Source: a virus
Virus record (IMG/VR): IMGVR_UViG_3300045988_159385
Coordinates: 1 to 47,144 of that record
DNA: 47,144 nt
Reading direction: 5' to 3' (one strand)
Shown: one piece after another, positions 3,887 to 47,144 of the stretch
Position numbering within the stretch: the first letter of the stretch is position 1
Layout of the letters: every line of letters begins with the position of its first letter
Made by a program: the position numbers and the translations under genes
The notes under the pieces: generated by a model
Database searches by the model: none
Told to the model about the DNA's origin: nothing
Seen by the model: only the letters and a program-made list of their open reading frames with translations

Positions 3887-4168
3887 GTGTCCATTATGGG
3901 AAAGGGCAGAAGATACGATCAAGAATATAAAGATATGATAGTAGAATTATTTAAGTCAGGAATGAGCTTAGCAGAGCTAAGTAGCGAATATGGCATTGCA
4001 AAATCAACAATTAACGGCTGGATTAAAGATGTAAAAGAAATTAAAGTAGATGAAAATGAAGTTATGACATTAAAGGAAGTTAAGGCTTTAAAAAAAGAAA
4101 TGGCAAGAATTAAAGAGGAAAATGAAATATTAAAAAAAGCTATGGCCATATTTGCAACAAGAAATTAG
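3887..4168 (+). CDS. IS3-family transposase OrfA (HTH, leucine-zipper-like C-terminus)
   Basis: 93 aa, MSIMGKGRRYDQEYKDMIVELFKSGMSLAELSSEYGIAKSTINGWIK. Confidence 0.8.
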   Translation: MSIMGKGRRYDQEYKDMIVELFKSGMSLAELSSEYGIAKSTINGWIKDVKEIKVDENEVMTLKEVKALKKEMARIKEENEILKKAMAIFATRN

Positions 4169-4221
4169 ATGAATTAATAGAATTTATAAATAGCAATAAA
4201 AACAAACATGATATTAAGACT

Positions 4222-5043
4222 ATGTGTACCGTTCTAGGCGTAGCCAGAAGCACATATTATAAATCTTTTGATAAAACTAAATCTGCAAGAGAACTAGAAA
4301 ATGAGGAATTAAAATCAGCTATTAAAAGGATATATAAAGAGAATAAAGGCATATATGGTGCTCCTAGGATTCATCATATACTTGGTATAGAAGGATTCAA
4401 TGTATCATTGAAGCGAGTTCAAAGACGAATGACTGAACTTGGCCTTTGTGCAGTAACTGTAAAAAAATACAAACCTCATTCAAGTAAAAAGGTAGCAGAA
4501 GATTTAGAAAACGTTTTGAAAAGAGATTTTACTACTACTTCTATTAACGAAAAATGGGTAGGAGATATTACATATATTTATACTATCAAAGATGGTTGGT
4601 GCTATTTAGCTTCAGTTCTAGACTTATATTCTAAAAAAATAATTGGCTATGCTTTCGATCAGAGAATGACTAATGATTTAGTTGTTAAAGCCTTAAAAAA
4701 TGCTTATTACAGCCAATCTCCCGATAAGAATAAGCAATTAATATTTCATAGCGATTTAGGCTCTCAATACACTAGCAATGATTTAAGGGAGCTATGCAAA
4801 GAGTTTAATATTATACAATCGTTTAGTAAAAAAGGTTGTCCATATGATAATGCTTGTATAGAATCTTTTCATTCATTAATAAAAAAGGAAGAAATATATA
4901 GAAATACATACCGTACCTTCGAAGAAGCTAATATGGCTATTTTTAAATATATTGAAGGTTGGTATAACAGAAAAAGGCTACACTCTTCTATTAATTACAT
5001 GACTCCAGATCAATGTGAATTATTAGCTAGAAGTGCAGCATAA
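4222..5043 (+). CDS. IS3-family transposase OrfB (DDE integrase core), probably made as an OrfAB fusion by a -1 frameshift
   Basis: Frame 1 is open from 4126 through the slippery site. Contains the HSDLGSQYTS motif and is a 273-aa DDE domain. Confidence 0.8.
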   Translation: MCTVLGVARSTYYKSFDKTKSARELENEELKSAIKRIYKENKGIYGAPRIHHILGIEGFNVSLKRVQRRMTELGLCAVTVKKYKPHSSKKVAEDLENVLKRDFTTTSINEKWVGDITYIYTIKDGWCYLASVLDLYSKKIIGYAFDQRMTNDLVVKALKNAYYSQSPDKNKQLIFHSDLGSQYTSNDLRELCKEFNIIQSFSKKGCPYDNACIESFHSLIKKEEIYRNTYRTFEEANMAIFKYIEGWYNRKRLHSSINYMTPDQCELLARSAA

Positions 5044-7117: not shown

Positions 7118-7522
7118 TTAAAAAGGTAATTCCTCTTCCTGTTCTACTGGAGTTCCAAAGTCCGATTGACTATAATTATTATTTTTCCCACTTGAATTAT
7201 TACTGCTTAAAAAAGTTATTCCATTAAACATATCTGCAACAACTTCTGTTATATATCTCTTTGTTCCATCTTTAGCATCGTAAGACCTGTTTGCTATTCT
7301 CCCGCTTACTGCTATTTGACTTCCTTTTACACAATACTGTGCAACATTTTCCGCACTCTTTCCCCAAACTACTACTGGTATAAAATCAGCACCTTTTTCG
7401 CCTGTTTTACTGTTATAATTATCAACTGCTACTGTTAAGCTGCTAACTGCGATACCATTTCCAGGTGTATATCTTAGTTCAGGATCTTTTGTTAATCTTC
7501 CTATAAGTACTACTTTATTCAT
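7118..7522 (-). CDS. ssb: Single-stranded DNA-binding protein
   Basis: OB-fold SSB N-terminus MNKVVLIGRLTKDPELRYTPGNG... and acidic C-terminal tail EEELPF. Confidence 0.85.
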   Translation of the reverse strand: MNKVVLIGRLTKDPELRYTPGNGIAVSSLTVAVDNYNSKTGEKGADFIPVVVWGKSAENVAQYCVKGSQIAVSGRIANRSYDAKDGTKRYITEVVADMFNGITFLSSNNSSGKNNNYSQSDFGTPVEQEEELPF

Positions 7523-7831: not shown

Positions 7832-8712
7832 TTACCTTGCCCTACCACTTCTACATCATAGGCATCACAATCCAAGAAGTTTTTTAACCTTTTTAAGTTA
7901 TCTTTACTTGCTGAAACTTTCAACTTAACAAAAAATTTCTTTTCATTTTCATTTATTTCTTCGCTCTGTTCAGCCTTTAAAGATGTAGATTTGCCATGTT
8001 CTGTTTCTGGGACTAACGCTGGTGCTTCTGCTTGCTTTATTTTATTAGCTTGTCCTTTTACAAGTGTCATTATCTTATCTACAGTCCAGCCTCCTTCTAC
8101 AAAATCGCTAAACTCTGAATAAGTTAATTTAGTATTTAACTCTGAATTTTCTTGCTCTATCTGTTTCATGACCGCAGCTTTAAGTATTTCCTTTTCTTTT
8201 TCTTCCGCTTCTTGCAATGCTTTTATATTAGATATTTTAAAATCTATTTCTTCTTTAATACTTTTTATAGAGTTTGTAAGATTTATTTTAATATCATGAA
8301 TGCTAATATTTTTTCTGAATTTTTCATTGATATTATTTTCTTCTAGTTGCTTATTTAAATAATCTAATGCCAGTAATACTTTTTCTTGCCTTCTTTCTTC
8401 ATCAAATTTTGCAATGCCTTCTTTTATTGGCTTTTCTACTTCTACTATTAAAGACAGTAATTCTTTGCACTCTTCTTCAAACTTTTTGATAGGCTCTTGC
8501 AACTTAGACTTAGTTTCTTTTCTATAACTATCTACTTTATTTCTTAGTCCAGCCAACTCTTTTTGAGTTGCTTTGCAATCCTTTAAAGTTTCTTCAGATA
8601 CTAGAAGTCCTCTATATTTTTCTAAACTAAATTTTAAATTTTCTCTAACTTCTGTAAAGTTTGTTTCTATGTTTGCTTGTTTAGCCTGTACTTTTAATTC
8701 TTGCATTACCAT
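7825..8712 (-). CDS. Coiled-coil protein (295 aa), probably recombination-associated
   Basis: Long heptad-rich ORF directly downstream of erf. Confidence 0.4.
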   Translation of the reverse strand: MVMQELKVQAKQANIETNFTEVRENLKFSLEKYRGLLVSEETLKDCKATQKELAGLRNKVDSYRKETKSKLQEPIKKFEEECKELLSLIVEVEKPIKEGIAKFDEERRQEKVLLALDYLNKQLEENNINEKFRKNISIHDIKINLTNSIKSIKEEIDFKISNIKALQEAEEKEKEILKAAVMKQIEQENSELNTKLTYSEFSDFVEGGWTVDKIMTLVKGQANKIKQAEAPALVPETEHGKSTSLKAEQSEEINENEKKFFVKLKVSASKDNLKRLKNFLDCDAYDVEVVGQGKC

Positions 8713-9329
8713 ACTGCCTCACTCTCATTAAAACCATTTAAATCTTTTGCTATATCTGCTTTTTTCTTGTCTAGCATTGCCATTGCTTCTGCAAATTGAC
8801 CTTCTTTCATTTCTTCAACTTTACTGGCATTAAAATAATTTAAGAATTTTGCCATATCTGTTTTAGTTTCTTCTATAGCTTTCTTAATAATTACTGCTTT
8901 TACTTGAGTTATTTTAGACTTAGCGATTTCTGCTTCTTCATCTACATTCCCAGCATCTATTAAATCATTTTCTGCTATTTCAAATGCCATTATGTACAGA
9001 TATCTTCTAGCGTAAGACTGTGTAGCTCCTATATTCTGCATTGCCGCAGCACTTTTCAAAGTTGCGATTTGCACTGGTGTGCTGAATGTTTCATTCTCAG
9101 ATGGATCTTCTGTGTTAACTACTACTAGATGTGCATAATCTTCGTTGAAGTTAAAAATTGTAGAAAGCCCATTTTCATAACACAATGCGTTAATTGCTGG
9201 TAAAAAATCTTGTAATTCGAAATAAGTGTGGTTCGAAAATTTATTAACTCCACTTTTCTTTAAATTTTTTTTCTGTAGTTCTACTCTTACCTTCTGCAAC
9301 TTAGCATATAAATTAAGCTTCTCACTCAT
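8706..9329 (-). CDS. ERF-family single-strand annealing protein
   Basis: NKFSNHTYFELQDFLP and GATQSYARRYLYIMAFEI recall the P22 Erf motifs KYKYRSCEDIL and GATSSYARKY. Sits in the classic ERF-SSB arrangement. Confidence 0.65.
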   Translation of the reverse strand: MSEKLNLYAKLQKVRVELQKKNLKKSGVNKFSNHTYFELQDFLPAINALCYENGLSTIFNFNEDYAHLVVVNTEDPSENETFSTPVQIATLKSAAAMQNIGATQSYARRYLYIMAFEIAENDLIDAGNVDEEAEIAKSKITQVKAVIIKKAIEETKTDMAKFLNYFNASKVEEMKEGQFAEAMAMLDKKKADIAKDLNGFNESEAVW

Positions 9330-14144: not shown

Positions 14145-15122
14145 ATGAAAAAATACGTTTTAAGTGCTGATATTGGTAAGTACGAAACAGAAATTACAGG
14201 TAGAGATTTAGAAGGAACAAAAGAAGATATTAAGACAGTTGCTTTAAGAACTAAGATGTATGATTTAAGCAATGGATATATCGAAGTTGAAGGAGATAGC
14301 TATGTAGTTGAATTTGACGGAAAAGAGTTTATTGTTGGAGAACAAGGTCAATCAAAAAGTGACGATACTACAAAAACTCAATTCTTACACCAGTTAGCTT
14401 GTTACACTGCAATTACTAAATTTTTAGAAGCAGGAAGTAAAGACAATAAAATATTCATGACTTTAGCTTGTCCTTTAAGTGTATTAAGTATACAGGAAGC
14501 AAAAGAAGAATATAAAAACTTCATAAAAGGTGATGGGCCTATTAAAATGAAGGTTGATGGTAAAGAATATGAGTTTACTATTGAGGACATAACTATAAAG
14601 GCTGAAGGTGCTGGAATAATATACTTAGAACCAAACTTATTTAAAGATAAATCTGTTGCTATAGTAGACCTTGGTGGTTTAAATATGGGATTCAGTTTAT
14701 ATATTAATAAAGTATGTAAAAAAGAATATAGATTTATAGAAGAGTGTGGAACTGATAGATTACTTGATTTAGTTAGAGAACAACTTTCTATATATAAGAA
14801 AGGAAACCTTGTAGATAAAGATATTTCAGAAAAAGCTTTAAATGAAGGTGGCTTAAAGAAATCAGGTAAACTTGATCTTGACAGTGTAGACTTCATAGAA
14901 ACTGCAAAAGAAAATTACTTTAAGGAAGTTATGGGTTATATAAAGGCGCATAAATTTGATGTAGAAACACTTGATGCTATTGTATTCGTTGGAGGTACTT
15001 CTCAACATATTAAAACTAATATAGTGACTTCATTAGAACACGCTTATGTTCCAAGTAATTCTCAATACTGTACCGTTGAAGGCAATTATAAAGTTGCTAT
15101 TAAAAAATATGGAAACATTTAA
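14145..15122 (+). CDS. parM: Actin-like segregation ATPase (ParM/Alp family)
   Basis: N-terminal phosphate-1 motif LSADIGKYETE and VDLGGLNMGF motif. 325 aa, followed by a small RHH gene. Confidence 0.65.
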   Translation: MKKYVLSADIGKYETEITGRDLEGTKEDIKTVALRTKMYDLSNGYIEVEGDSYVVEFDGKEFIVGEQGQSKSDDTTKTQFLHQLACYTAITKFLEAGSKDNKIFMTLACPLSVLSIQEAKEEYKNFIKGDGPIKMKVDGKEYEFTIEDITIKAEGAGIIYLEPNLFKDKSVAIVDLGGLNMGFSLYINKVCKKEYRFIEECGTDRLLDLVREQLSIYKKGNLVDKDISEKALNEGGLKKSGKLDLDSVDFIETAKENYFKEVMGYIKAHKFDVETLDAIVFVGGTSQHIKTNIVTSLEHAYVPSNSQYCTVEGNYKVAIKKYGNI

Positions 15123-15136
15123 GGAAAGGTGATTAA

Positions 15137-15508
15137 ATGCCAAGCATTGATAAAGTTGGTGGAGGAATAACAATAACTTTTGCCCCTAAAAATGATGATG
15201 TTAGGGAGATATTAGTAGAGTTAAAGAAAAGTAAAAAGGTTAAATTAACCGATTATATTTGTGAAGCTATAAGATTTTATGAAGCTAATAAAGATAAAAT
15301 GAATAATGATAAAGGTGATTTAGCTGAAATAATAAAAGAAGAAGTTTCAAAGCAAGTAAAATCTGAAATTGAAAAAATAGAAGTTTCAAAACAAATAAAA
15401 GATGAAATTGAAAAAATATTAGAAGAAAAGAAATTAACTTTAATTGAGAATGTATCTGTATCATTGGAAGATGATTTGGAAGATGTGGATATAACTGAAG
15501 ATGGTTAA
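15137..15508 (+). CDS. parR: ParR-like ribbon-helix-helix centromere-binding adaptor
   Basis: N-terminus ITITFAPKNDDVREILVELKK...LTDYICEAIRFY has a beta-alpha-alpha pattern, followed by an acidic coiled tail. Confidence 0.5.
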   Translation: MPSIDKVGGGITITFAPKNDDVREILVELKKSKKVKLTDYICEAIRFYEANKDKMNNDKGDLAEIIKEEVSKQVKSEIEKIEVSKQIKDEIEKILEEKKLTLIENVSVSLEDDLEDVDITEDG

Positions 15509-15524
15509 TGCCAAGGAGGAATTT

Positions 15525-16241
15525 ATGGAATCAGGAATTTACAAAATAGTTTGCATCCCAAATCAAATGGTTTATATAGGGCAATCTATAGATGTATCGA
15601 ATCGTTGGAAGCAACATTTAAATGATTTAAGAAGCAATAAACATTGCAATAAAGGATTACAAGAAGACTTTTTAAAATATGGAGAGATAAATTTTGAATT
15701 TTCAATAGTAGCTACTTGCGAAGCTAGTGTATTAGATTTATTAGAATTACATTATATTGATAAGTATAAAAAAAATAATCAATCTTATAATATAAAAACA
15801 AGCGAGAGTGGTAGACATAAAGAAAGAGTGCAATTAACTCCAGAGGAATATAAGAAAATAGTTAAGTTTAAAGAATCTGATACAATAGACGATGAAACTA
15901 TAAAAACATTGTTGGCAATGGCAAAAATGTTTTATTTAAATGGATTTGCCAGAAAAGAGTGTATTGCATTTGACTATAATTCCAACTCAATTAAAAAAGT
16001 TGTTTTCGCAGGGACACCTTGCGATGATAATTTGATGGCAATAAGAAAATGTATTTCTTTAGCTTTACTTTATATAATGTATTATGTAAATGAGTATATT
16101 TCAGAAAAGTATTCATATATGAATGAAATAGTAAAAACAAAGGTTTTATATAAAAACCTTCCATCTGAATACGGGAAATTAACGTTAAATTGTAAAGTTA
16201 TAAAAACTGGTGAACAATTTAAAAAAACTTTATACTTTTAA
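15525..16241 (+). CDS. GIY-YIG homing-type endonuclease
   Basis: SGIYKIVCIPNQMVYIGQS...R...H...N motif. AAGGAGG SD before ATG at 15525. Confidence 0.7.
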   Translation: MESGIYKIVCIPNQMVYIGQSIDVSNRWKQHLNDLRSNKHCNKGLQEDFLKYGEINFEFSIVATCEASVLDLLELHYIDKYKKNNQSYNIKTSESGRHKERVQLTPEEYKKIVKFKESDTIDDETIKTLLAMAKMFYLNGFARKECIAFDYNSNSIKKVVFAGTPCDDNLMAIRKCISLALLYIMYYVNEYISEKYSYMNEIVKTKVLYKNLPSEYGKLTLNCKVIKTGEQFKKTLYF

Positions 16242-42035: not shown

Positions 42036-42260
42036 TTAGTCATCAATAAAATTTTCTTCGCTTTCAATCTTATTGCATTCTCTATCTAAATACCACTTAG
42101 CTTTTTTTAAATCTTCTAATTTAGAATTTTTATGCTCTGCTCTTGCTATGTACTTAATTGTATTCCCTAAATTAAAGCCTAATTTCCAATCTTCTATAAC
42201 GCTGATAGGCTCAATATTTCCAGCATTATAATGTTTTGGATGATTTATATTATCACTCAT
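42036..42260 (-). CDS. DUF3310-like conserved phage protein
   Basis: HPKHY...IEPISVIEDWKLGFNLGNTIKYIARA...DLKKAKWYL pattern. Confidence 0.5.
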   Translation of the reverse strand: MSDNINHPKHYNAGNIEPISVIEDWKLGFNLGNTIKYIARAEHKNSKLEDLKKAKWYLDRECNKIESEENFIDD

Positions 42261-44836
42261 TTAAACACTCCTTGTATTATTTTATTTTCTTCTTCCGTTA
42301 CTTCTTCAAAGTCTGGCTCTACTATAGAATAAAGTTTTAATTCATGTAGTCTTTCCCTGTTATATTCATCATACCTCATTGACTTACCTGCAACTTTGAT
42401 TACTTTCCCAGTATCTATTATATAGCCACCTTTTTGAGCTTGTTTTTTAAAATCTTTCAGCTTTAAAGGGATAATTTCTGCTGAACCAACTTTATTTACA
42501 AAATCAAATATTTCATTTAGCATTTCAGAAGTTCTTATGTATACTTTATGTCCTTGTTCTTTTATTACGTCGCTTTGTGGGCCAACTCTTCCATCCTCCA
42601 ACATCTGATTATATAAAATCAACATATTTTCAGATACAGACCTGCTCTCTTCTTCCCCTTCTAAGATTTCATCTTTTATATTTGCTGTTATAAATTTTTC
42701 ATAGTCTGTTAGCTTGTTAATTCCATGTTTATTTAGTAATATATTCAATATCTCCATGCCGCAAGCTATATTTAAAGCCGTTCGCTGTGGTCTATTTTTT
42801 AATTCGGTGAAATTTCTCTTTGAATTTTCTCTTATAGCTTTATATTCTTCTGCACTTAAATTTAATACTATATTTATCAAACTTCGTCCCAACTTTTTTA
42901 ATAGTTCTTCATTTTCTATGAGCCACATCATAGATTCTGTATGTTCTTCTTTTCTTTCTCTCTTAGATAGATATACAATACAGCTTCTTTCTATTAATGC
43001 AGTTTCTGAATTAGGATAACTCTCTTCTCCAGCAACAATTAGTGGCCTTGATAGCTGAAACTCTTTAGTTTTAAGTGATTTATCCCCCCTTGAAATCGAT
43101 GCTCTATCATACGAATTTCTTAAAGTTTCACTTAATTTTTGAATTTTATATTTATCTAATGCACTAGGCTTGAATTCATCAAAAATGGAAGTGTAATTCC
43201 CAATACTCAGCTCTTTGATTAATGCAAAAGAAGTAATTAGACCGATGGATTTTATTTCTTTTAAGGGATAATTGAGTAAAGGTGCTACCACATTAGTTAA
43301 TATAGTTGATTTTCCCGAACCCGATTCTCCAACTATTAATAAATGATGAAGTTTTTCTTTAACTGCTTTGTTTTGTAGTACAGCTAAATTGTTGATTACA
43401 CTTCCAACTATCGGGATGCTTTTAGCTGGTGTAGTAAATCTAAATAATTTATGTATTAATAATTCAAGTTCTTCTTTAGTTATTTCTTTATCTATAATAC
43501 ACATATCCCCAGCCTTATCTGCCTTTATAGAATAATCTATATCCTCTTTTGATATACTATATTCTGCTGTTATTAACTTAATTTCATTACTTTTTTCTAT
43601 AAATTTTATACCCTCATGAATTTCTTCATTATCTATTGCGAAAAATCTATTGACCCATGACCCAAACTCTGTTAAGTCATCTGTTTTCCCTTTAAAGGAT
43701 AGGTCCAATGTTCCTAGAAAATTTTTAAAACTTTTCACATCATCAAAAACATTAGCATATCCGATTTTTTCGATTACTTCATCTGTACAACTCTTTGCAA
43801 TAAGCTTAATTCCCTCTAAATCCTCATCAACAAATTTTAATCTTTTTGCTTCAAGTAGCTTAAAATCAGTAATATATCGCTTTCCCCAACTTTCTGTATT
43901 TTTATCAAAATACCACCTAAAAATTCCTTGCCAGTCTTGTTGTAATTCATATTTAGATTTTAGATCTAAGCTACGTTTAAAGGCTTTTAATAAATCATTT
44001 TTGTTATTTCCTGCTTCAATCCAGTCCGTTACGTCTTTATTATCCCCCATACTCTTGAGGCTAGGTAAAGTAATAAACTTAAATTGACTACAATATTCTT
44101 CATATTCATCAAAAATTTTTTTCCCGTATTTCTCTCCAGCCTCTCCAGTGTCGCTAATCACGAAAACTTTCATCCCAGTTCTCTGTAGCATTGAAAAATC
44201 TTTTAAGCCCTTGACAGAAGTTGCAGTATAATAGTTGTTCTTAAATAGTGCATTGATGGTATTGGCATCTTTTTCACCTTCAACAAATATTATTGTTTTT
44301 CCTTCTTCTAATGCCTTTAATGAATTGTAGTGATTATATGGCACTTCTTCATGCCCTCTAGAATTGATGACCTTGTCCCCTTCAAAGTGATAATATGAAG
44401 TAGTTTTCTTTCCATCAGCTTTTGAAAATTTGACTTTATAATATATTATTTCATTTTGCTGATTTACGAATGGGAAAATCCCTTTTATTTCAAGTCCCTT
44501 TTTATCCTCATACTTTTCTATCTGCCATTTTATAAAGTTTTCTAATTGCTCTAACTTTTTTTCTTCTTCTGTTTCTTCTTCTGCTATATCTAAATACTTT
44601 CTAGCTTCTGTATAATTAAAGCCTTTAAGTTTCTGTATAAAATCTATAGCATCTCCAACTTCTTCGCATCCAAAACACTTAAATTTTTGTTTATTGGCAT
44701 CTGGAAAAAACTTTATTGACATACTTGCTGTCTTTTCGTTGTGGAAAGGACACTTTATAAATCCTTTTTTATCAAAAAAGTTTCCTGTTTCATTCTCAAT
44801 TAAACTTTTTAAATCTATGTCTATCAACGCCTTCAC
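42257..44836 (-). CDS. DNA primase (CHC2 zinc finger plus TOPRIM) fused to a P-loop NTPase domain
   Basis: CPFHNEKTASM...CFGCEEVGDAIDF zinc finger; IIFVEGEKDANTI TOPRIM motif; Walker A GESGSGKST. Confidence 0.75.
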   Translation of the reverse strand: MKALIDIDLKSLIENETGNFFDKKGFIKCPFHNEKTASMSIKFFPDANKQKFKCFGCEEVGDAIDFIQKLKGFNYTEARKYLDIAEEETEEEKKLEQLENFIKWQIEKYEDKKGLEIKGIFPFVNQQNEIIYYKVKFSKADGKKTTSYYHFEGDKVINSRGHEEVPYNHYNSLKALEEGKTIIFVEGEKDANTINALFKNNYYTATSVKGLKDFSMLQRTGMKVFVISDTGEAGEKYGKKIFDEYEEYCSQFKFITLPSLKSMGDNKDVTDWIEAGNNKNDLLKAFKRSLDLKSKYELQQDWQGIFRWYFDKNTESWGKRYITDFKLLEAKRLKFVDEDLEGIKLIAKSCTDEVIEKIGYANVFDDVKSFKNFLGTLDLSFKGKTDDLTEFGSWVNRFFAIDNEEIHEGIKFIEKSNEIKLITAEYSISKEDIDYSIKADKAGDMCIIDKEITKEELELLIHKLFRFTTPAKSIPIVGSVINNLAVLQNKAVKEKLHHLLIVGESGSGKSTILTNVVAPLLNYPLKEIKSIGLITSFALIKELSIGNYTSIFDEFKPSALDKYKIQKLSETLRNSYDRASISRGDKSLKTKEFQLSRPLIVAGEESYPNSETALIERSCIVYLSKRERKEEHTESMMWLIENEELLKKLGRSLINIVLNLSAEEYKAIRENSKRNFTELKNRPQRTALNIACGMEILNILLNKHGINKLTDYEKFITANIKDEILEGEEESRSVSENMLILYNQMLEDGRVGPQSDVIKEQGHKVYIRTSEMLNEIFDFVNKVGSAEIIPLKLKDFKKQAQKGGYIIDTGKVIKVAGKSMRYDEYNRERLHELKLYSIVEPDFEEVTEEENKIIQGVFK

Positions 44837-44853
44837 AATTTCACCTCACTTTA

Positions 44854-45360
44854 TTAAATTCTTCCTTGAAAATATTTCTCTATCTCTTTCTTTTGTATTA
44901 TGTTGTTAAAGATATTCTTATTCGCTACAACCCAAATCTTTTGATTAAGAGTTATATCTACCAACTCAGATGAAGAAAATTCATTACATACATCTATCAT
45001 TTGATTAATAAGCTTTCTATCATTTTGACAGATTGAACCCCAGTTAAAACTTTTAATAACAGCATTCCATACCCCTTTACTAATATCTGTGTACTCTGTT
45101 ATTGGTGGTATGTTATTACCTCCATACTTTCTGTATTCTTTATACACTTCAGGTATTACTGGCCCAAAATCCCATGCTTCTATTTCTTCAGTAAAACATT
45201 CCACACCTTTTGTTGTTATAAATAATGCTTGTACAAAATATAATATCTTTTGTAATTTCAAATTAGATACCCAATAATTATTTTTATTGCAATAATTAAT
45301 TACATATCTTGATACATCTAGTACGTTGTACACCCGCTCTTTATTACTCTTCTTCATCAA
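44854..45360 (-). CDS. Panacea (DUF4065/SocA-like) domain protein; candidate antitoxin
   Basis: LKLQKILYFVQALFITTKG...FTEEIEAWDFGPVIPEVYKEY matches the Panacea signature as I recall it. It overlaps the upstream ORF by 17 nt. Confidence 0.55.
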   Translation of the reverse strand: MMKKSNKERVYNVLDVSRYVINYCNKNNYWVSNLKLQKILYFVQALFITTKGVECFTEEIEAWDFGPVIPEVYKEYRKYGGNNIPPITEYTDISKGVWNAVIKSFNWGSICQNDRKLINQMIDVCNEFSSSELVDITLNQKIWVVANKNIFNNIIQKKEIEKYFQGRI

Positions 45361-45985
45361 AATATCCTTTATTTTTTAAAATATCTCTTACTGCATATCT
45401 TAAAGTATTATAGATTTCTGCTGCTACATCTTCTGCACTTACTGGCATTATTAAAGTTTTAAATTCTCTCTCTAATGCTTTTAGTCTTTTGTATAATGTC
45501 CCTTTTTCATATTTGGAACGATAATTCCCATTTTTTAAGTTTTTCAAATAATTTTCATCTTCTATGTATATAACAAAGTTTGTCCCATACCTGTTTAAAG
45601 CTGTAAACTCTTGTTTTAATCTCATGTAATCACTTTTTAATATTTTCTCTAAATATTTCTCCCCAAGTAGTTCTACTGCTTCTTTATCTATATCTTTAAG
45701 ATTGTCTTTTTTAGTTCTTAAATTCATTGCTAATTCATCAATACAAGATTTTCTCTCTATCACAATATCATCAGTGAAATAAATATCCCTAGTTTGTCCC
45801 TTGAATGATCCGTTGGGGATATAGCAAGAGTAATCACCTAAATCTACTTTAGCTATCTTATAAGGTCTTTTTTTAGCTTCTAGCCATTCTTTTATGTGTT
45901 CGCATTTCTGTTCTCTTGTATCTATAAGCACTACCATGCTATCTAAAATTTTATCTATTTCTGTTTCAGTATATTTATATCTCAT
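45344..45985 (-). CDS. ERCC4/XPF-type nuclease-domain protein (213 aa)
   Basis: VLIDTREQ followed by GDY(n)ERKSCIDEL, i.e. the GDXnERKX3D nuclease motif. Confidence 0.5.
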   Translation of the reverse strand: MRYKYTETEIDKILDSMVVLIDTREQKCEHIKEWLEAKKRPYKIAKVDLGDYSCYIPNGSFKGQTRDIYFTDDIVIERKSCIDELAMNLRTKKDNLKDIDKEAVELLGEKYLEKILKSDYMRLKQEFTALNRYGTNFVIYIEDENYLKNLKNGNYRSKYEKGTLYKRLKALEREFKTLIMPVSAEDVAAEIYNTLRYAVRDILKNKGYFDEEE

Positions 45986-45995
45986 CTTTGCTCCT

Positions 45996-46280
45996 TTATT
46001 TTATTTGTTTTAGAAATTGTGAATTATGTGGAACAAGAACACTTTCACCACATTTGATACAAGTAAATCTATGTCCTTGTATAGTTCCTACATTTATGTC
46101 ATTTATGTGGTGCATATCAGCCCCACACCTCCAACATGGAATAGGTTCAAATTTTTTATTGTCACAATCAAACATAGCATAGCTATTAGTTGCATTAGTA
46201 TCTGAATAATTCTCTTCTGCTCTAAAACAACTTTTTCTTTCTTCACATTCTTTATTGATACAAAACGTTATGTCTTTCAT
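45996..46280 (-). CDS. Zinc-binding mini-protein (94 aa)
   Basis: Multiple CxxC pairs. Confidence 0.45.
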   Translation of the reverse strand: MKDITFCINKECEERKSCFRAEENYSDTNATNSYAMFDCDNKKFEPIPCWRCGADMHHINDINVGTIQGHRFTCIKCGESVLVPHNSQFLKQIK

Positions 46281-46321
46281 ATTAATATCCTTCTTTTTTT
46301 GAAATGTTTTTGAATTATTCG

Positions 46322-46615
46322 TTATTCCTTTATGTTGAAATTCATATCCCCACTGCCATCCATTTCAACTGTCATAGTTGCACATTTTTCATCATCTCTT
46401 CTTTTAGAAAATATCTTATTTGCTAAGTCAACCATTTCTAATAAAATTTTAGCATTGTTGTAATCTGCTTCTGTTAATAGTGTTTCCCCACACTTAGGAC
46501 ACTTTACATTAACCCACTTTTCATAGTCCTTAGCATCTATACTCATATCTACATAATCACACGTTGGATTATCACATTTTAATCCACCCATATTAATTTC
46601 TAAAGCATTTTTCAT
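46322..46615 (-). CDS. Zinc-ribbon protein (97 aa)
   Basis: CDNPTC...CPKCGE with GGAGGA SD. Confidence 0.45.
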   Translation of the reverse strand: MKNALEINMGGLKCDNPTCDYVDMSIDAKDYEKWVNVKCPKCGETLLTEADYNNAKILLEMVDLANKIFSKRRDDEKCATMTVEMDGSGDMNFNIKE

Positions 46616-46646
46616 CTTTAAATCCTCCTGTATACTTTGTAATATA

Positions 46647-46820
46647 TTTAAACTATGCTGTTATTTTTCTTTCTTTTTATTAAAGCATTTTCAGAACCAA
46701 AAATGCTTATGAAACCATTTTTCTCTAAAACTTTAATATCTCTATCTTCGCTTATTTCTATAACCTTACCAACTGCACCAGTTATTTTACTCTGAACTTC
46801 ATCTCCTAAATTAATTTCCA
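46647..46820 (-). CDS. Small hypothetical protein (57 aa, MEINLGDEVQSKITGAVGKV...)
   Basis: AGGTGA SD; below the track cutoff. Confidence 0.35.
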
Positions 46821-46837
46821 TAATTCACCTATATTTA

Positions 46838-46866
46838 ACTTGCAATATACTTGAATTGTTCGCTAC
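46838..46866 (-). promoter_or_regulatory. Conserved motif copy
   Basis: CTTGCAATATACTTGAATTGTTCGCTACT. Confidence 0.5.
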
Positions 46867-47042
46867 TTGTTAACTTTTCTATTATCAAAATTAGTAACCT
46901 TATTTATATTAATTTCTTTTGAAATACCTGGTTGCTTATTTATTAAATCTTCTAAGCAGTCTATAATATCTACTTGTTGCATATATTCTAAATCCATTTC
47001 TTTTATTTCTTTCAATAACTTATCGCCATCAATAATTTTCAT
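46863..47042 (-). CDS. Small hypothetical protein (about 59 aa)
   Basis: SD-supported ATG at 47040-47042. Motif copy at 47058-47085. Confidence 0.4.
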   Translation of the reverse strand: MKIIDGDKLLKEIKEMDLEYMQQVDIIDCLEDLINKQPGISKEININKVTNFDNRKVNK

Positions 47043-47057
47043 ATTAAATCGTCCTTT

Positions 47058-47085
47058 CATTCACAATATATTCAAATTGTTCTGT
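47058..47085 (-). promoter_or_regulatory. Conserved motif copy
   Basis: CATTCACAATATATTCAAATTGTTCTGT. Confidence 0.5.
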
Positions 47086-47101
47086 TAAAATTTATCTTTT
47101 A

Positions 47102-47144
47102 ATTAAAAATTAAACTCCCAAGTATAAAGTTTCATTAAATCTTC
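47102..47144 (-). CDS. 3' end of the gene that starts at 577 (continuation across the circular junction)
   Basis: ...EDLMKLYTWEFNF* with stop at 47102-47104. Positions 47117-47144 are identical to 1-28. Confidence 0.55.

Follow-up and report, generated by a model that had tools for sequence, protein, structure and literature searches.

Do two overlapping genes in the replication region of a phage genome form a toxin-antitoxin pair, or do they merely abut? The question is posed by a virus sequence of 47,144 nucleotides (nt), IMG/VR record IMGVR_UViG_3300045988_159385, positions 1 to 47,144 (referred to below, at its full length, as the window). An open reading frame (ORF) of 213 amino acids (aa) with an ERCC4-type nuclease signature, located at 45344..45985, runs into a second ORF, at 44854..45357, that encodes a Panacea domain of the kind found in PanA antitoxins. 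A preliminary description, made from the letters of the sequence, had suggested that the two constitute either a co-translated toxin-antitoxin or defence module of a phage-plasmid or a replication-associated nuclease with an accessory protein. Both ORFs are real and are located on the minus strand, at the coordinates given in that description. We find that the two genes are independent: the nuclease belongs to the core of phage recombination and replication modules, and its neighbour is a recently mobile, orphan Panacea gene whose usual partner, a PanT toxin gene, is absent from the window. When the two are read jointly, as a core nuclease next to an independent and recently spreading orphan PanA that possibly counters PanT toxins in trans, we give the account a little less than an even chance.

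Independence of the nuclease and Panacea genes

The predicted product of the 45344..45985 gene matches the ERCC4 profile PF02732 over residues 21-192 (37.4 bits at a gathering cutoff of 24, E 3e-9) and phrog_3490, annotated as "ERCC4-type nuclease", over residues 9-206 (1.4e-46). Its AlphaFold2 model (predicted local distance difference test score, pLDDT, of 84) has a restriction-endonuclease-like fold and aligns over ~190-200 columns with the nuclease domains of Mus81, XPF and Hef; Foldseek retrieved Mus81 2ziu_A at 1.4e-6, Aeropyrum XPF 2bhn_B at 2.3e-6 and Pyrococcus Hef 1j22 at 2.5e-6, each with a probability of 1.00. The profile match bears out the family assignment that the preliminary description had made from motifs, and the DTREQ, GDY and ERKSCIDEL motifs cited there are all present. 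The C-terminal 120 residues, which had been left unassigned, belong to the ERCC4 domain, as the Pfam, PHROG and fold matches show. A sequence search of the PDB with the nuclease gave no match, PADLOC gave no convincing family for it, and a literature search retrieved no biochemical study specific to phage ERCC4 nucleases.

The signature of ERCC4 nucleases is GDXnERKX3D. In the window protein, it is represented by G50-D51-Y52 (45830..45838, minus strand) and by E77-R78-K79-S-C-I-D83-E84 (ERKxxxD; 45734..45757, minus strand), which are preceded by the first acidic cluster of the active site, D22-T-R-E25 (45911..45922, minus strand). Residues D22, R24 and E25, the G50-D51-Y52 triplet and residues E77, R78, K79, D83 and E84 are invariant in our comparisons A2 and A4, and G50-D51-Y52 together with E77-R78-K79-x3-D83 is unchanged across 63 homologs, distant phage homologs included. 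In these motifs (GDXnERKX3D and DxRE) and in the fold of the nuclease domain, the protein is like the XPF/Mus81/Hef endonucleases (PF02732), but it is a single domain of 213 aa that carries neither the (HhH)2 dimerisation/DNA-binding domain nor the helicase domain: it stops after the nuclease domain, and Pfam reports no HhH match. Since the (HhH)2 domain is absent, we classify the protein as a minimal phage ERCC4-type nuclease and not as an XPF/Mus81 orthologue. Within the ERCC4 domain, members of this Clostridium-phage clade carry a helical insert of ~21-24 aa.

Homologs of the nuclease are located in Erf/RecT-SSB-primase modules (SSB, single-stranded DNA-binding protein) of Clostridium, Bacillus and Lysinibacillus phages, and this context agrees from host to host. 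The order is Erf, ERCC4, ThyX, SSB and primase in phiCP13O (ERCC4 directly adjoins erf in phages of this type); SSB, primase, one gene and ERCC4 in phi105; a recombination protein, two genes and ERCC4 in vB_LspM-01; and RecT, several genes, a metallo-hydrolase, ERCC4, further genes and primase in the BG3P/1181 group. Among 72 distinct genes directly downstream of nuclease homologs, those for DnaG-type primases are the commonest (11), followed by D5-type primases, sigma-70 region 4 regulators, ThyX and YopX. Like the PHROG 3490 nucleases of other Firmicutes phages (phi105 gp42 and phiCP13O gp47), the window gene is part of a recombination/replication module with Erf, SSB and primase: genes for an Erf-like single-strand annealing protein (8706..9329, minus strand; phrog_155 at 1.8e-29) and for SSB (7118..7522, minus strand; phrog_44 at 1.2e-50) are found in the same minus-strand early region as the nuclease and primase genes.

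Recombination/replication modules of Clostridium and Bacillus phages have the nuclease among their core genes, and the Erf-like protein probably represents its partner pathway in recombination. To judge from the known biochemistry of the family, the nuclease most likely cuts branched DNA (flaps, forks and nicked junctions) during Erf/SSB-dependent, recombination-driven replication. We propose that this stand-alone enzyme, of the same type as Mus81, XPF and Hef and complete in its active site, would serve the recombination-dependent replication of a Clostridium phage or phage-plasmid lineage. Of the two suggestions made before, that of a replication-associated nuclease therefore suits the ERCC4 gene; the Panacea protein as its accessory partner does not follow, as shown below.

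The nuclease gene does run, at its 3' end, into the start of the Panacea gene, over fewer than the 17 nt first described. That figure counted from TTG 45360, while the likely start codon is ATG 45357, which is preceded by an AAAGGA ribosome-binding site and is also the start in public assemblies, so that 14 nt are shared (45344..45357, minus strand). Such an overlap is not notable, because at least eight other same-strand neighbour pairs in the window overlap by 4-14 nt.

Adjacency of the two genes is confined to near-identical relatives of the window, that is, to one phage species-level group. In 23 loci with nucleases 54-60% identical to that of the window, four Panacea proteins used as tblastn queries had no match within 4 kb. 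A hidden Markov model (HMM) built from 120 Panacea homologs, which picks up relatives down to ~25% identity, found none within 3 kb in 84 nuclease loci of 30-60% identity. Altogether, Panacea is absent within 3-4 kb at ~90 loci of nuclease homologs (30-96% identity), and, reciprocally, ~90 distinct Panacea homologs have no ERCC4 neighbour. Nor is Panacea among the matches listed (25 of the 38 matched families) for the immediate downstream neighbours of the nuclease. On the IMG/VR contig 2636415866_000004, an ERCC4 nuclease gene and a Panacea gene with its own partner (of the T4 family described below) are both present, ~30 kb apart.

What stands between nuclease and primase varies from relative to relative. 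On the 44-kb contig L224, whose nuclease is 96% identical to that of the window in protein and 95% in DNA, an unrelated 86-aa gene is located between nuclease and primase, and nucleotide homology with the window stops precisely at the nuclease stop codon (window 45344); the overlap is thus also a mosaic junction. The 86-aa gene or a 79-aa relative fills the same slot beside nucleases 78% and 69% identical to that of the window, and in other relatives the primase gene follows 25-34 nt past the nuclease or is separated from it by up to eight unrelated genes, a methyltransferase gene included. Because unrelated genes or none occupy it in relatives, the nuclease-primase interval is a hypervariable cargo slot (0 to 8 unrelated genes), filled in this phage by Panacea. 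The slot protein of 79-86 aa (L224 4635-4895, L225 866-1126 and L227 1959-2198) is helical, belongs to no Pfam family and is encoded by a gene that overlaps both neighbours by 8 nt; the window contains no homolog of its 86-aa form.

Comparison of the window with its relative L230 revealed 0 synonymous and 4 nonsynonymous differences in the Panacea cassette (synonymous divergence, dS, of 0), as against a dS of 0.19 in the nuclease gene and 0.27 in the primase gene that flank it. In contigs L008, L010 and L014, the cassette is found with other nuclease and primase alleles. The absence of synonymous change between diverged flanks, together with the several backbone combinations, therefore points to a recent horizontal spread of a single-gene cassette. 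A larger mobile unit of Panacea plus primase, both of which are identical in L008 and L010, was considered and rejected, since the primase of L230 differs at a dS of 0.27 and its Panacea gene at a dS of 0.

These observations can be set against the proposal of a toxin-antitoxin pair with the ERCC4 nuclease as toxin and, coupled to it in translation, the Panacea protein of the overlapping gene as cognate antitoxin, the two making up an addiction or abortive-infection module of the phage-plasmid. The arrangement has its parallels: the 14-nt overlap comes with a toxin-first order, which is found in 325 of 1,268 PanAT loci, and Panacea antitoxins swap partners freely (Kurata 2022, PMC8832971). Moreover, the element is probably a plasmid prophage (an ALP_N partition protein is encoded), which gains from addiction modules, and the pair is kept in several near-identical metagenome contigs. 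In the survey of Kurata 2022, a PanAT locus was defined by two genes at most 100 nt apart, and the overlapping pair lies well within this distance. The same definition excludes longer conserved operons, and here the pair is embedded in a same-strand string of replication genes with conserved nuclease-to-primase synteny.

Yet an adjacency seen in one species-level group has to be weighed against the ~90 nuclease loci and ~90 Panacea loci that lack it. The 96%-identical nuclease of L224 does without Panacea, and the near-identical one of L014 stands beside a frameshifted copy. The nuclease has reached a dS of 0.19 while the cassette stayed unchanged, which speaks against co-evolution, its family is conserved in Erf-SSB-primase modules, and overlapping neighbours are common in this genome. 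Neither the main text of Kurata 2022 (PMC8832971) nor the accessible parts of its supplementary files mention ERCC4. A nuclease toxin held in check by Panacea is therefore scarcely credible, and the co-evolving toxin-antitoxin or defence pair of the preliminary description gives way to two genes with separate histories, the usual partner of Panacea being of another kind. We conclude with high confidence that the nuclease and Panacea genes are independent and merely abut in a compact operon.

An orphan of the T4-associated PanA clade

The Panacea gene (44854..45357, minus strand) encodes 167 aa from ATG 45357. Its product matches the SocA_Panacea profile PF13274 over positions 1-112 of 113 with 61.3 bits (gathering cutoff 25.7, E 2.1e-16), which upholds the domain call made earlier from the motifs LKLQKILYFVQ and EAWDFGPVIPEVY, both present, and it matches phrog_1281 at 8e-37. 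The AlphaFold2 model is confident (pLDDT 92, predicted template modelling score 0.88) and consists of seven helices, a beta1/beta2 hairpin and an extra hairpin at residues 88-103. Matches in a sequence search of the PDB were at noise level, and Foldseek retrieved no PDB structure for the model at E <=0.001. The GPV motif G65-P66-V67 (45157..45165, minus strand), which forms strand 65-67 of the model and is invariant in our comparison A3, is retained. In PanA of V. harveyi, the G62A V64S double substitution abolished neutralisation, while the single substitutions did not (PMC8832971).

The Panacea domain is shared with SocA of the Caulobacter SocA-SocB system (type VI), in which SocA delivers the clamp-binding toxin SocB to ClpXP (PMC8832971). 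SocB blocks the sliding clamp, which makes for a thematic link to replication. The window protein differs in that it scores 74.3 bits against the NCBIfam SocA equivalog NF047745, below the cutoff of 190, and that no SocB-like gene accompanies it. Proteases were not needed for the other PanAs tested by Kurata 2022 (PMC8832971).

We collected Panacea homologs with flanking DNA from IMG/VR (27 loci), GTDB genomes (64 loci), GenBank phages and metagenome contigs. In 58 of the 63 assessable distinct homologs with at least 40% identity, the Panacea gene is followed by a partner gene of ~290-350 aa that starts -83 to +28 nt from the Panacea stop codon; all nine homologs with at least 50% identity have it, including the closest non-self relatives (64% and 56%). 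The partners form one homologous family, with a soluble, helix-rich N-terminal half (~150-190 residues) followed by 3-4 predicted transmembrane helices. They belong to no Pfam family (weak membrane-protein matches are scattered among them) and have no convincing PADLOC family. We identify the family with PanT group T4 of Kurata 2022, whose Dataset S1 has the pairs of Bacterium D16-51 and D16-56 with the same gene spacings. DUF334 and SCP-1-like Streptococcus proteins, phage P9 gp52 and a pair of Helicobacter sp. 13S00482-2 also belong to group T4 there (PMC8832971). The Helicobacter toxin-antitoxin pair was validated, and its toxin depolarises the membrane (PMC8832971).

No such partner is found in the window: tblastn with 22 partner proteins gave a best E of 0.02, and the partner HMM gave no match. 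The window protein resembles the antitoxins of PanA-PanT(T4) modules (PMC8832971) in being a stand-alone Panacea domain, 40-64% identical to them, equal in length, alike in the predicted succession of helices and strands, and with GPV. The clade is common in prophages of Firmicutes, Clostridium included, and its paired modules directly follow the lysis genes or directly precede terminase in prophages of Streptococcus, Listeria and Clostridia; among the last is C. botulinum, in which a 354-aa T4 PanT gene lies downstream of P0016 (L231 6488-7552). The window gene departs from these modules in having no T4 toxin gene, in having Leu and Ile in place of a conserved His and Pro, and in its location within an early replication operon instead of the post-lysis/pre-terminase site. 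It is an orphan of PanA descent, from antitoxins whose genes usually precede one for a T4 PanT.

The His and Pro in question belong to the motif T-H-x-Q-x-P-W, which in the window reads T136-L137-N-Q-K-I141-W142 (44932..44952, minus strand) and forms the C-terminal cluster in which the protein departs from its clade. Both residues are present in 55 of 55 paired homologs and in 115 of the 120 closest database homologs. Other orphans have Gln (L104, L059), Arg (L051/L052) or Thr (P0005, P0007) at the His position; the last two were predicted beforehand to be orphans from their His-to-Thr change, and their contigs confirmed it. L109 is the sole orphan lineage that keeps the His. Counted by lineage, the His is present/absent in 55/0 paired and 1/5 orphan cases (Fisher p = 1e-6, uncorrected for phylogeny).

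In the AlphaFold2 model, L137 is the last residue of helix 5, and the motif extends from the end of that helix into the start of the next, helix 6. PanA of B. choladocola no longer neutralises a membrane PanT once it carries H120E, a substitution "at the C-terminal end of alpha5" (PMC10440598). By secondary-structure position alone, we infer that L137 would be the equivalent of H120. Loss of the His may reflect either an altered, non-releasing mode of binding or plain loss of the toxin interface.

A single orphan clade uniting the window lineage with P0005/P0007 was tried and rejected: a neighbour-joining tree groups the two, with a bootstrap of just 14%, and the seven-taxon group that includes the paired P0002 lineage has a bootstrap of 75% in the same kind of tree. 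Because of this low value for the joint clade, one toxin loss and two are indistinguishable.

The surroundings of the other orphans vary. On L221 (506-871 and 2394-2876), the P0007 orphan belongs to the early region of a phage and lies downstream of an Acb2/Tad1-hairpin (PF24729) gene, at a distance of five genes. YopX, dNK, a nucleoside transporter, ThiF and a UvrD helicase are encoded there as well, and the whole may represent an anti-defence island. On L104 (4881-8990, a metagenome-assembled genome of Candidatus Heritagella), the His-less orphan lies 200 nt upstream of a 1,097-aa ORF whose N-terminus, HLHVHSMYSLRD, resembles the PHP-domain DNA polymerase III alpha subunit; it is the second orphan beside a replication enzyme. 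On L109 (5484-5672), the His-retaining Panacea gene is followed by just a 62-aa ORF that opens like the T4 partners of L055-L057 ("MFDK..."), which suggests, from the sequence, a recent truncation of the toxin gene.

Gene neighbourhood and origin of the window

On the minus strand, the genes around the pair are, in order, small ORFs, a 94-aa zinc-ribbon ORF, the 213-aa nuclease ORF, the 167/168-aa Panacea ORF, and genes for primase, a DUF3310 protein, a transcriptional regulator and packaging functions; the replication-region setting given to the pair in the preliminary description is correct. The primase (859 aa; 42257..44836, minus strand) is of the DnaG type with a P-loop NTPase domain (Zn_ribbon_DnaG 2.8e-15, Toprim, P-loop, phrog_26824). 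It starts 17 nt past the Panacea stop codon and is context for the Panacea gene, not its partner. On contig L011 (975-1057, corresponding to window 44403-44481), 77 nt in the 5' part of the primase gene are replaced by 81 unrelated nt between flanks of 100% identity, probably an assembly artefact or a small indel variant. A scan of the 5-kb region for terminators gave no terminator-like sites, and promoter-like sites are not enriched there (22, as against 28.4 expected in shuffled sequence).

The location between nuclease and primase raises the possibility that Panacea has been re-purposed for replication, as a SocA-like adaptor delivering a replication protein of host or phage to a protease, or as a sensor or regulator acting on the adjacent primase, in replacement of the 86-aa slot gene. 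Several facts agree with it: the absence of terminator-like sites from the 5-kb region, the L104 orphan upstream of a PHP-type DNA polymerase III alpha-like ORF, the ClpXP-mediated precedent of SocA (PMC8832971), the loss of the neutralisation-linked His, which would fit a change of partner, and the sensory role that Ernits 2023 proposes for Panacea (PMC10440598). The SocA equivalog score, however, is 74 bits at a cutoff of 190. The window has no 86-aa homolog, nothing marks the two proteins as functional analogues, the cargo of the slot is unrelated in other relatives, and the P0005/P0007 orphans are located among small early genes, away from replication enzymes. A replication role is accordingly quite unlikely.

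Directly upstream of the nuclease gene (45996-46615, minus strand), two CxxC zinc-ribbon proteins of 94 and 97 aa are encoded. The 94-aa gene (45996-46280) is replaced or highly divergent in the otherwise close relatives L008, L010 and L230, which makes it another mosaic hot spot. Small ORFs are numerous at 45996-47144 and in the first kilobases of the window, and one may ask whether Panacea is the antitoxin or sensor of a split defence module whose effector, a non-T4 toxin, is encoded elsewhere in the window or by the host chromosome; recognisable two-gene loci leave out about half of the known Panacea proteins (PMC8832971). On the other hand, the window has no T4 homolog, no neighbour is consistently tied to the orphans, and the proteins tested around the locus gave no convincing PADLOC match. 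We consider a split system improbable.

The DUF3310 protein (74 aa; 42036-42260, minus strand), whose gene overlaps the primase stop codon by 4 nt, is in the window just a small C-terminal-like domain; families containing DUF3310 are labelled "nucleotide kinase" in PHROGs. An IS3-family insertion sequence (3887-5043, plus strand), made up of a 93-aa HTH_Tnp_1 ORF and a 273-aa rve transposase ORF, is located on the opposite strand within small early genes and divides the Erf/SSB block from the nuclease/primase block. A divergent block at 14145-16241 (plus strand) begins with a gene for an actin-like ALP_N partition protein (phrog_691; 14145-15122); two genes on, a GIY-YIG-type homing-endonuclease-like protein is encoded. 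Because the partition protein is present and no integrase was found among the window ORFs scanned, a plasmid-prophage lifestyle is plausible, as is the label of phage-plasmid applied to the element before.

The window corresponds, in rotated form, to the 47,151-bp contig scaffold_400 of ENA ERZ28578616, from a human-gut metagenome. By megablast, the 5-kb region had no nucleotide match among GenBank phages or PLSDB plasmids; relatives were found at the protein level. Judged by its proteins, the window belongs with siphovirus-like Clostridium phages. Its nuclease shares 56-58% identity with those of the C. perfringens phages vB_CpeS-BG3P, vB_CpeS-1181 and LPCPA58, and annotated homologs occur in numerous Clostridium genomes as well as in one 49-kb C. 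perfringens plasmid record.

Possible function of the orphan

What, then, might an antitoxin homolog do in the absence of its toxin? The orphans appear functional, as judged from purifying selection, retention of conserved positions, a confident fold and identity in 7 samples. We propose that the Panacea orphan of the window would be co-transcribed with the early replication genes and act in trans, binding T4-type PanT toxins, or PanA-PanT complexes, of resident prophages or of the host. Toxins bound in this way would be unable to abort infection or to kill cells that lose a competing element, and the orphan would be a counter-defence or anti-addiction factor. Such a trans-acting role is favoured because of the location in an early operon, the Acb2/Tad1-hairpin gene near one orphan, the PanA-T4 modules of C. 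botulinum, Streptococcus and Listeria prophages and the precedent of Dmd and AdfN, and we advance it tentatively.

Both precedents are orphan antitoxins of phages. Dmd of T4 acts against RnlA and LsoA (PMC8832971), and AdfN counters DarTG1 as an enzyme that reverses the modification made by the toxin (PMC11825919). The window orphan is like them in being a phage-borne antitoxin homolog among early genes with no cognate toxin encoded, a likeness known here from gene content. It differs in two respects: AdfN acts enzymatically, while PanA would have to act by binding, and the window orphan has lost a residue linked to neutralisation.

Several observations weigh against a trans-neutralising function. 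The sole PADLOC match to the Panacea protein is marginal (E 0.0078, with no stretch passing by itself). To our knowledge, PanA-T4 modules of the clade of the window have no experimental tie to phage defence. If L137 does correspond to H120, the orphan may no longer bind T4 toxins in the canonical manner. In the case of Streptococcus phage P9, gp52 was toxic in E. coli, and the PanA of the same phage (gp51) did not neutralise it there (PMC8832971). For the nuclease half of the account, the proposed substrates come from the family as a whole, and the (HhH)2 domain of XPF/Mus81 is absent. Further, the 4:0 split of nonsynonymous to synonymous differences between the window and L230 is compatible with neutrality. 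In L014 (Logan assembly, SRR32470328), a single-G insertion in a GGGG run at ~2060-2070 (window ~45075) frameshifts the Panacea gene, while the nuclease gene is one synonymous substitution away from that of the window. Finally, the Panacea gene is dispensable, since a close relative lacks it.

We do not take the L014 frameshift as proof of dispensability: it sits in a G-run of a single-run assembly and is possibly an error.

The last of these observations lead to the view that the orphan is a non-functional leftover, a PanA-PanT(T4) module having been captured, its toxin deleted and its antitoxin left to decay neutrally. In its favour, the clade-invariant His and Pro are gone and three further conserved positions are changed, all four differences within the lineage are nonsynonymous, one variant is frameshifted and a close relative lacks the gene altogether; the partner on L109, apparently cut to 62 aa, indicates that toxin loss occurs. 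Neutral decay is harder to reconcile with an intact ORF whose product is identical on 7 metagenome contigs (7 samples), keeps, GPV included, 43 of the 51 positions that are conserved at 85% or more (compared with 60 clade members) and folds confidently in the model. An independent orphan lineage is under purifying selection (dN/dS of 0.12 between the P0005 and P0007 orphans), the His was lost in at least four lineages with the ORF retained, and the recent spread of the cassette over backbones that differ at ~20% of synonymous sites is hard to explain for a useless gene. We therefore regard a mere leftover as rather unlikely.

A wider proposal, which we consider doubtful, is that the His-less orphans (those of the window, P0005/P0007, L104, L059 and L051) constitute a new phage family of counter-defence or anti-addiction factors. 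Such a family would have derived from PanA-PanT(T4) by loss of the toxin gene and by changes to the surface where helix 5 ends, would silence T4 toxins of prophages in trans and would be spreading between Clostridium phage-plasmids as a single-gene cassette.

A nuclease toxin with a Panacea antitoxin would have been a new class of PanAT toxin. The evidence says otherwise, and the nuclease is a widespread phage enzyme that is not unusual. The Panacea gene is of more consequence. The series of PanA proteins with and without a T4 toxin, in which toxin loss tracks the loss of one His, draws attention to a residue of importance for partnership with the toxin in this clade, and a set of phage-borne orphans is singled out by purifying selection and by spread as a cassette. 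If these orphans neutralise PanT toxins of prophages, they would be the first Panacea-based counter-defence, and the PanA-T4 modules of Firmicute prophages would be seen to act in phage-phage or plasmid-plasmid conflict.

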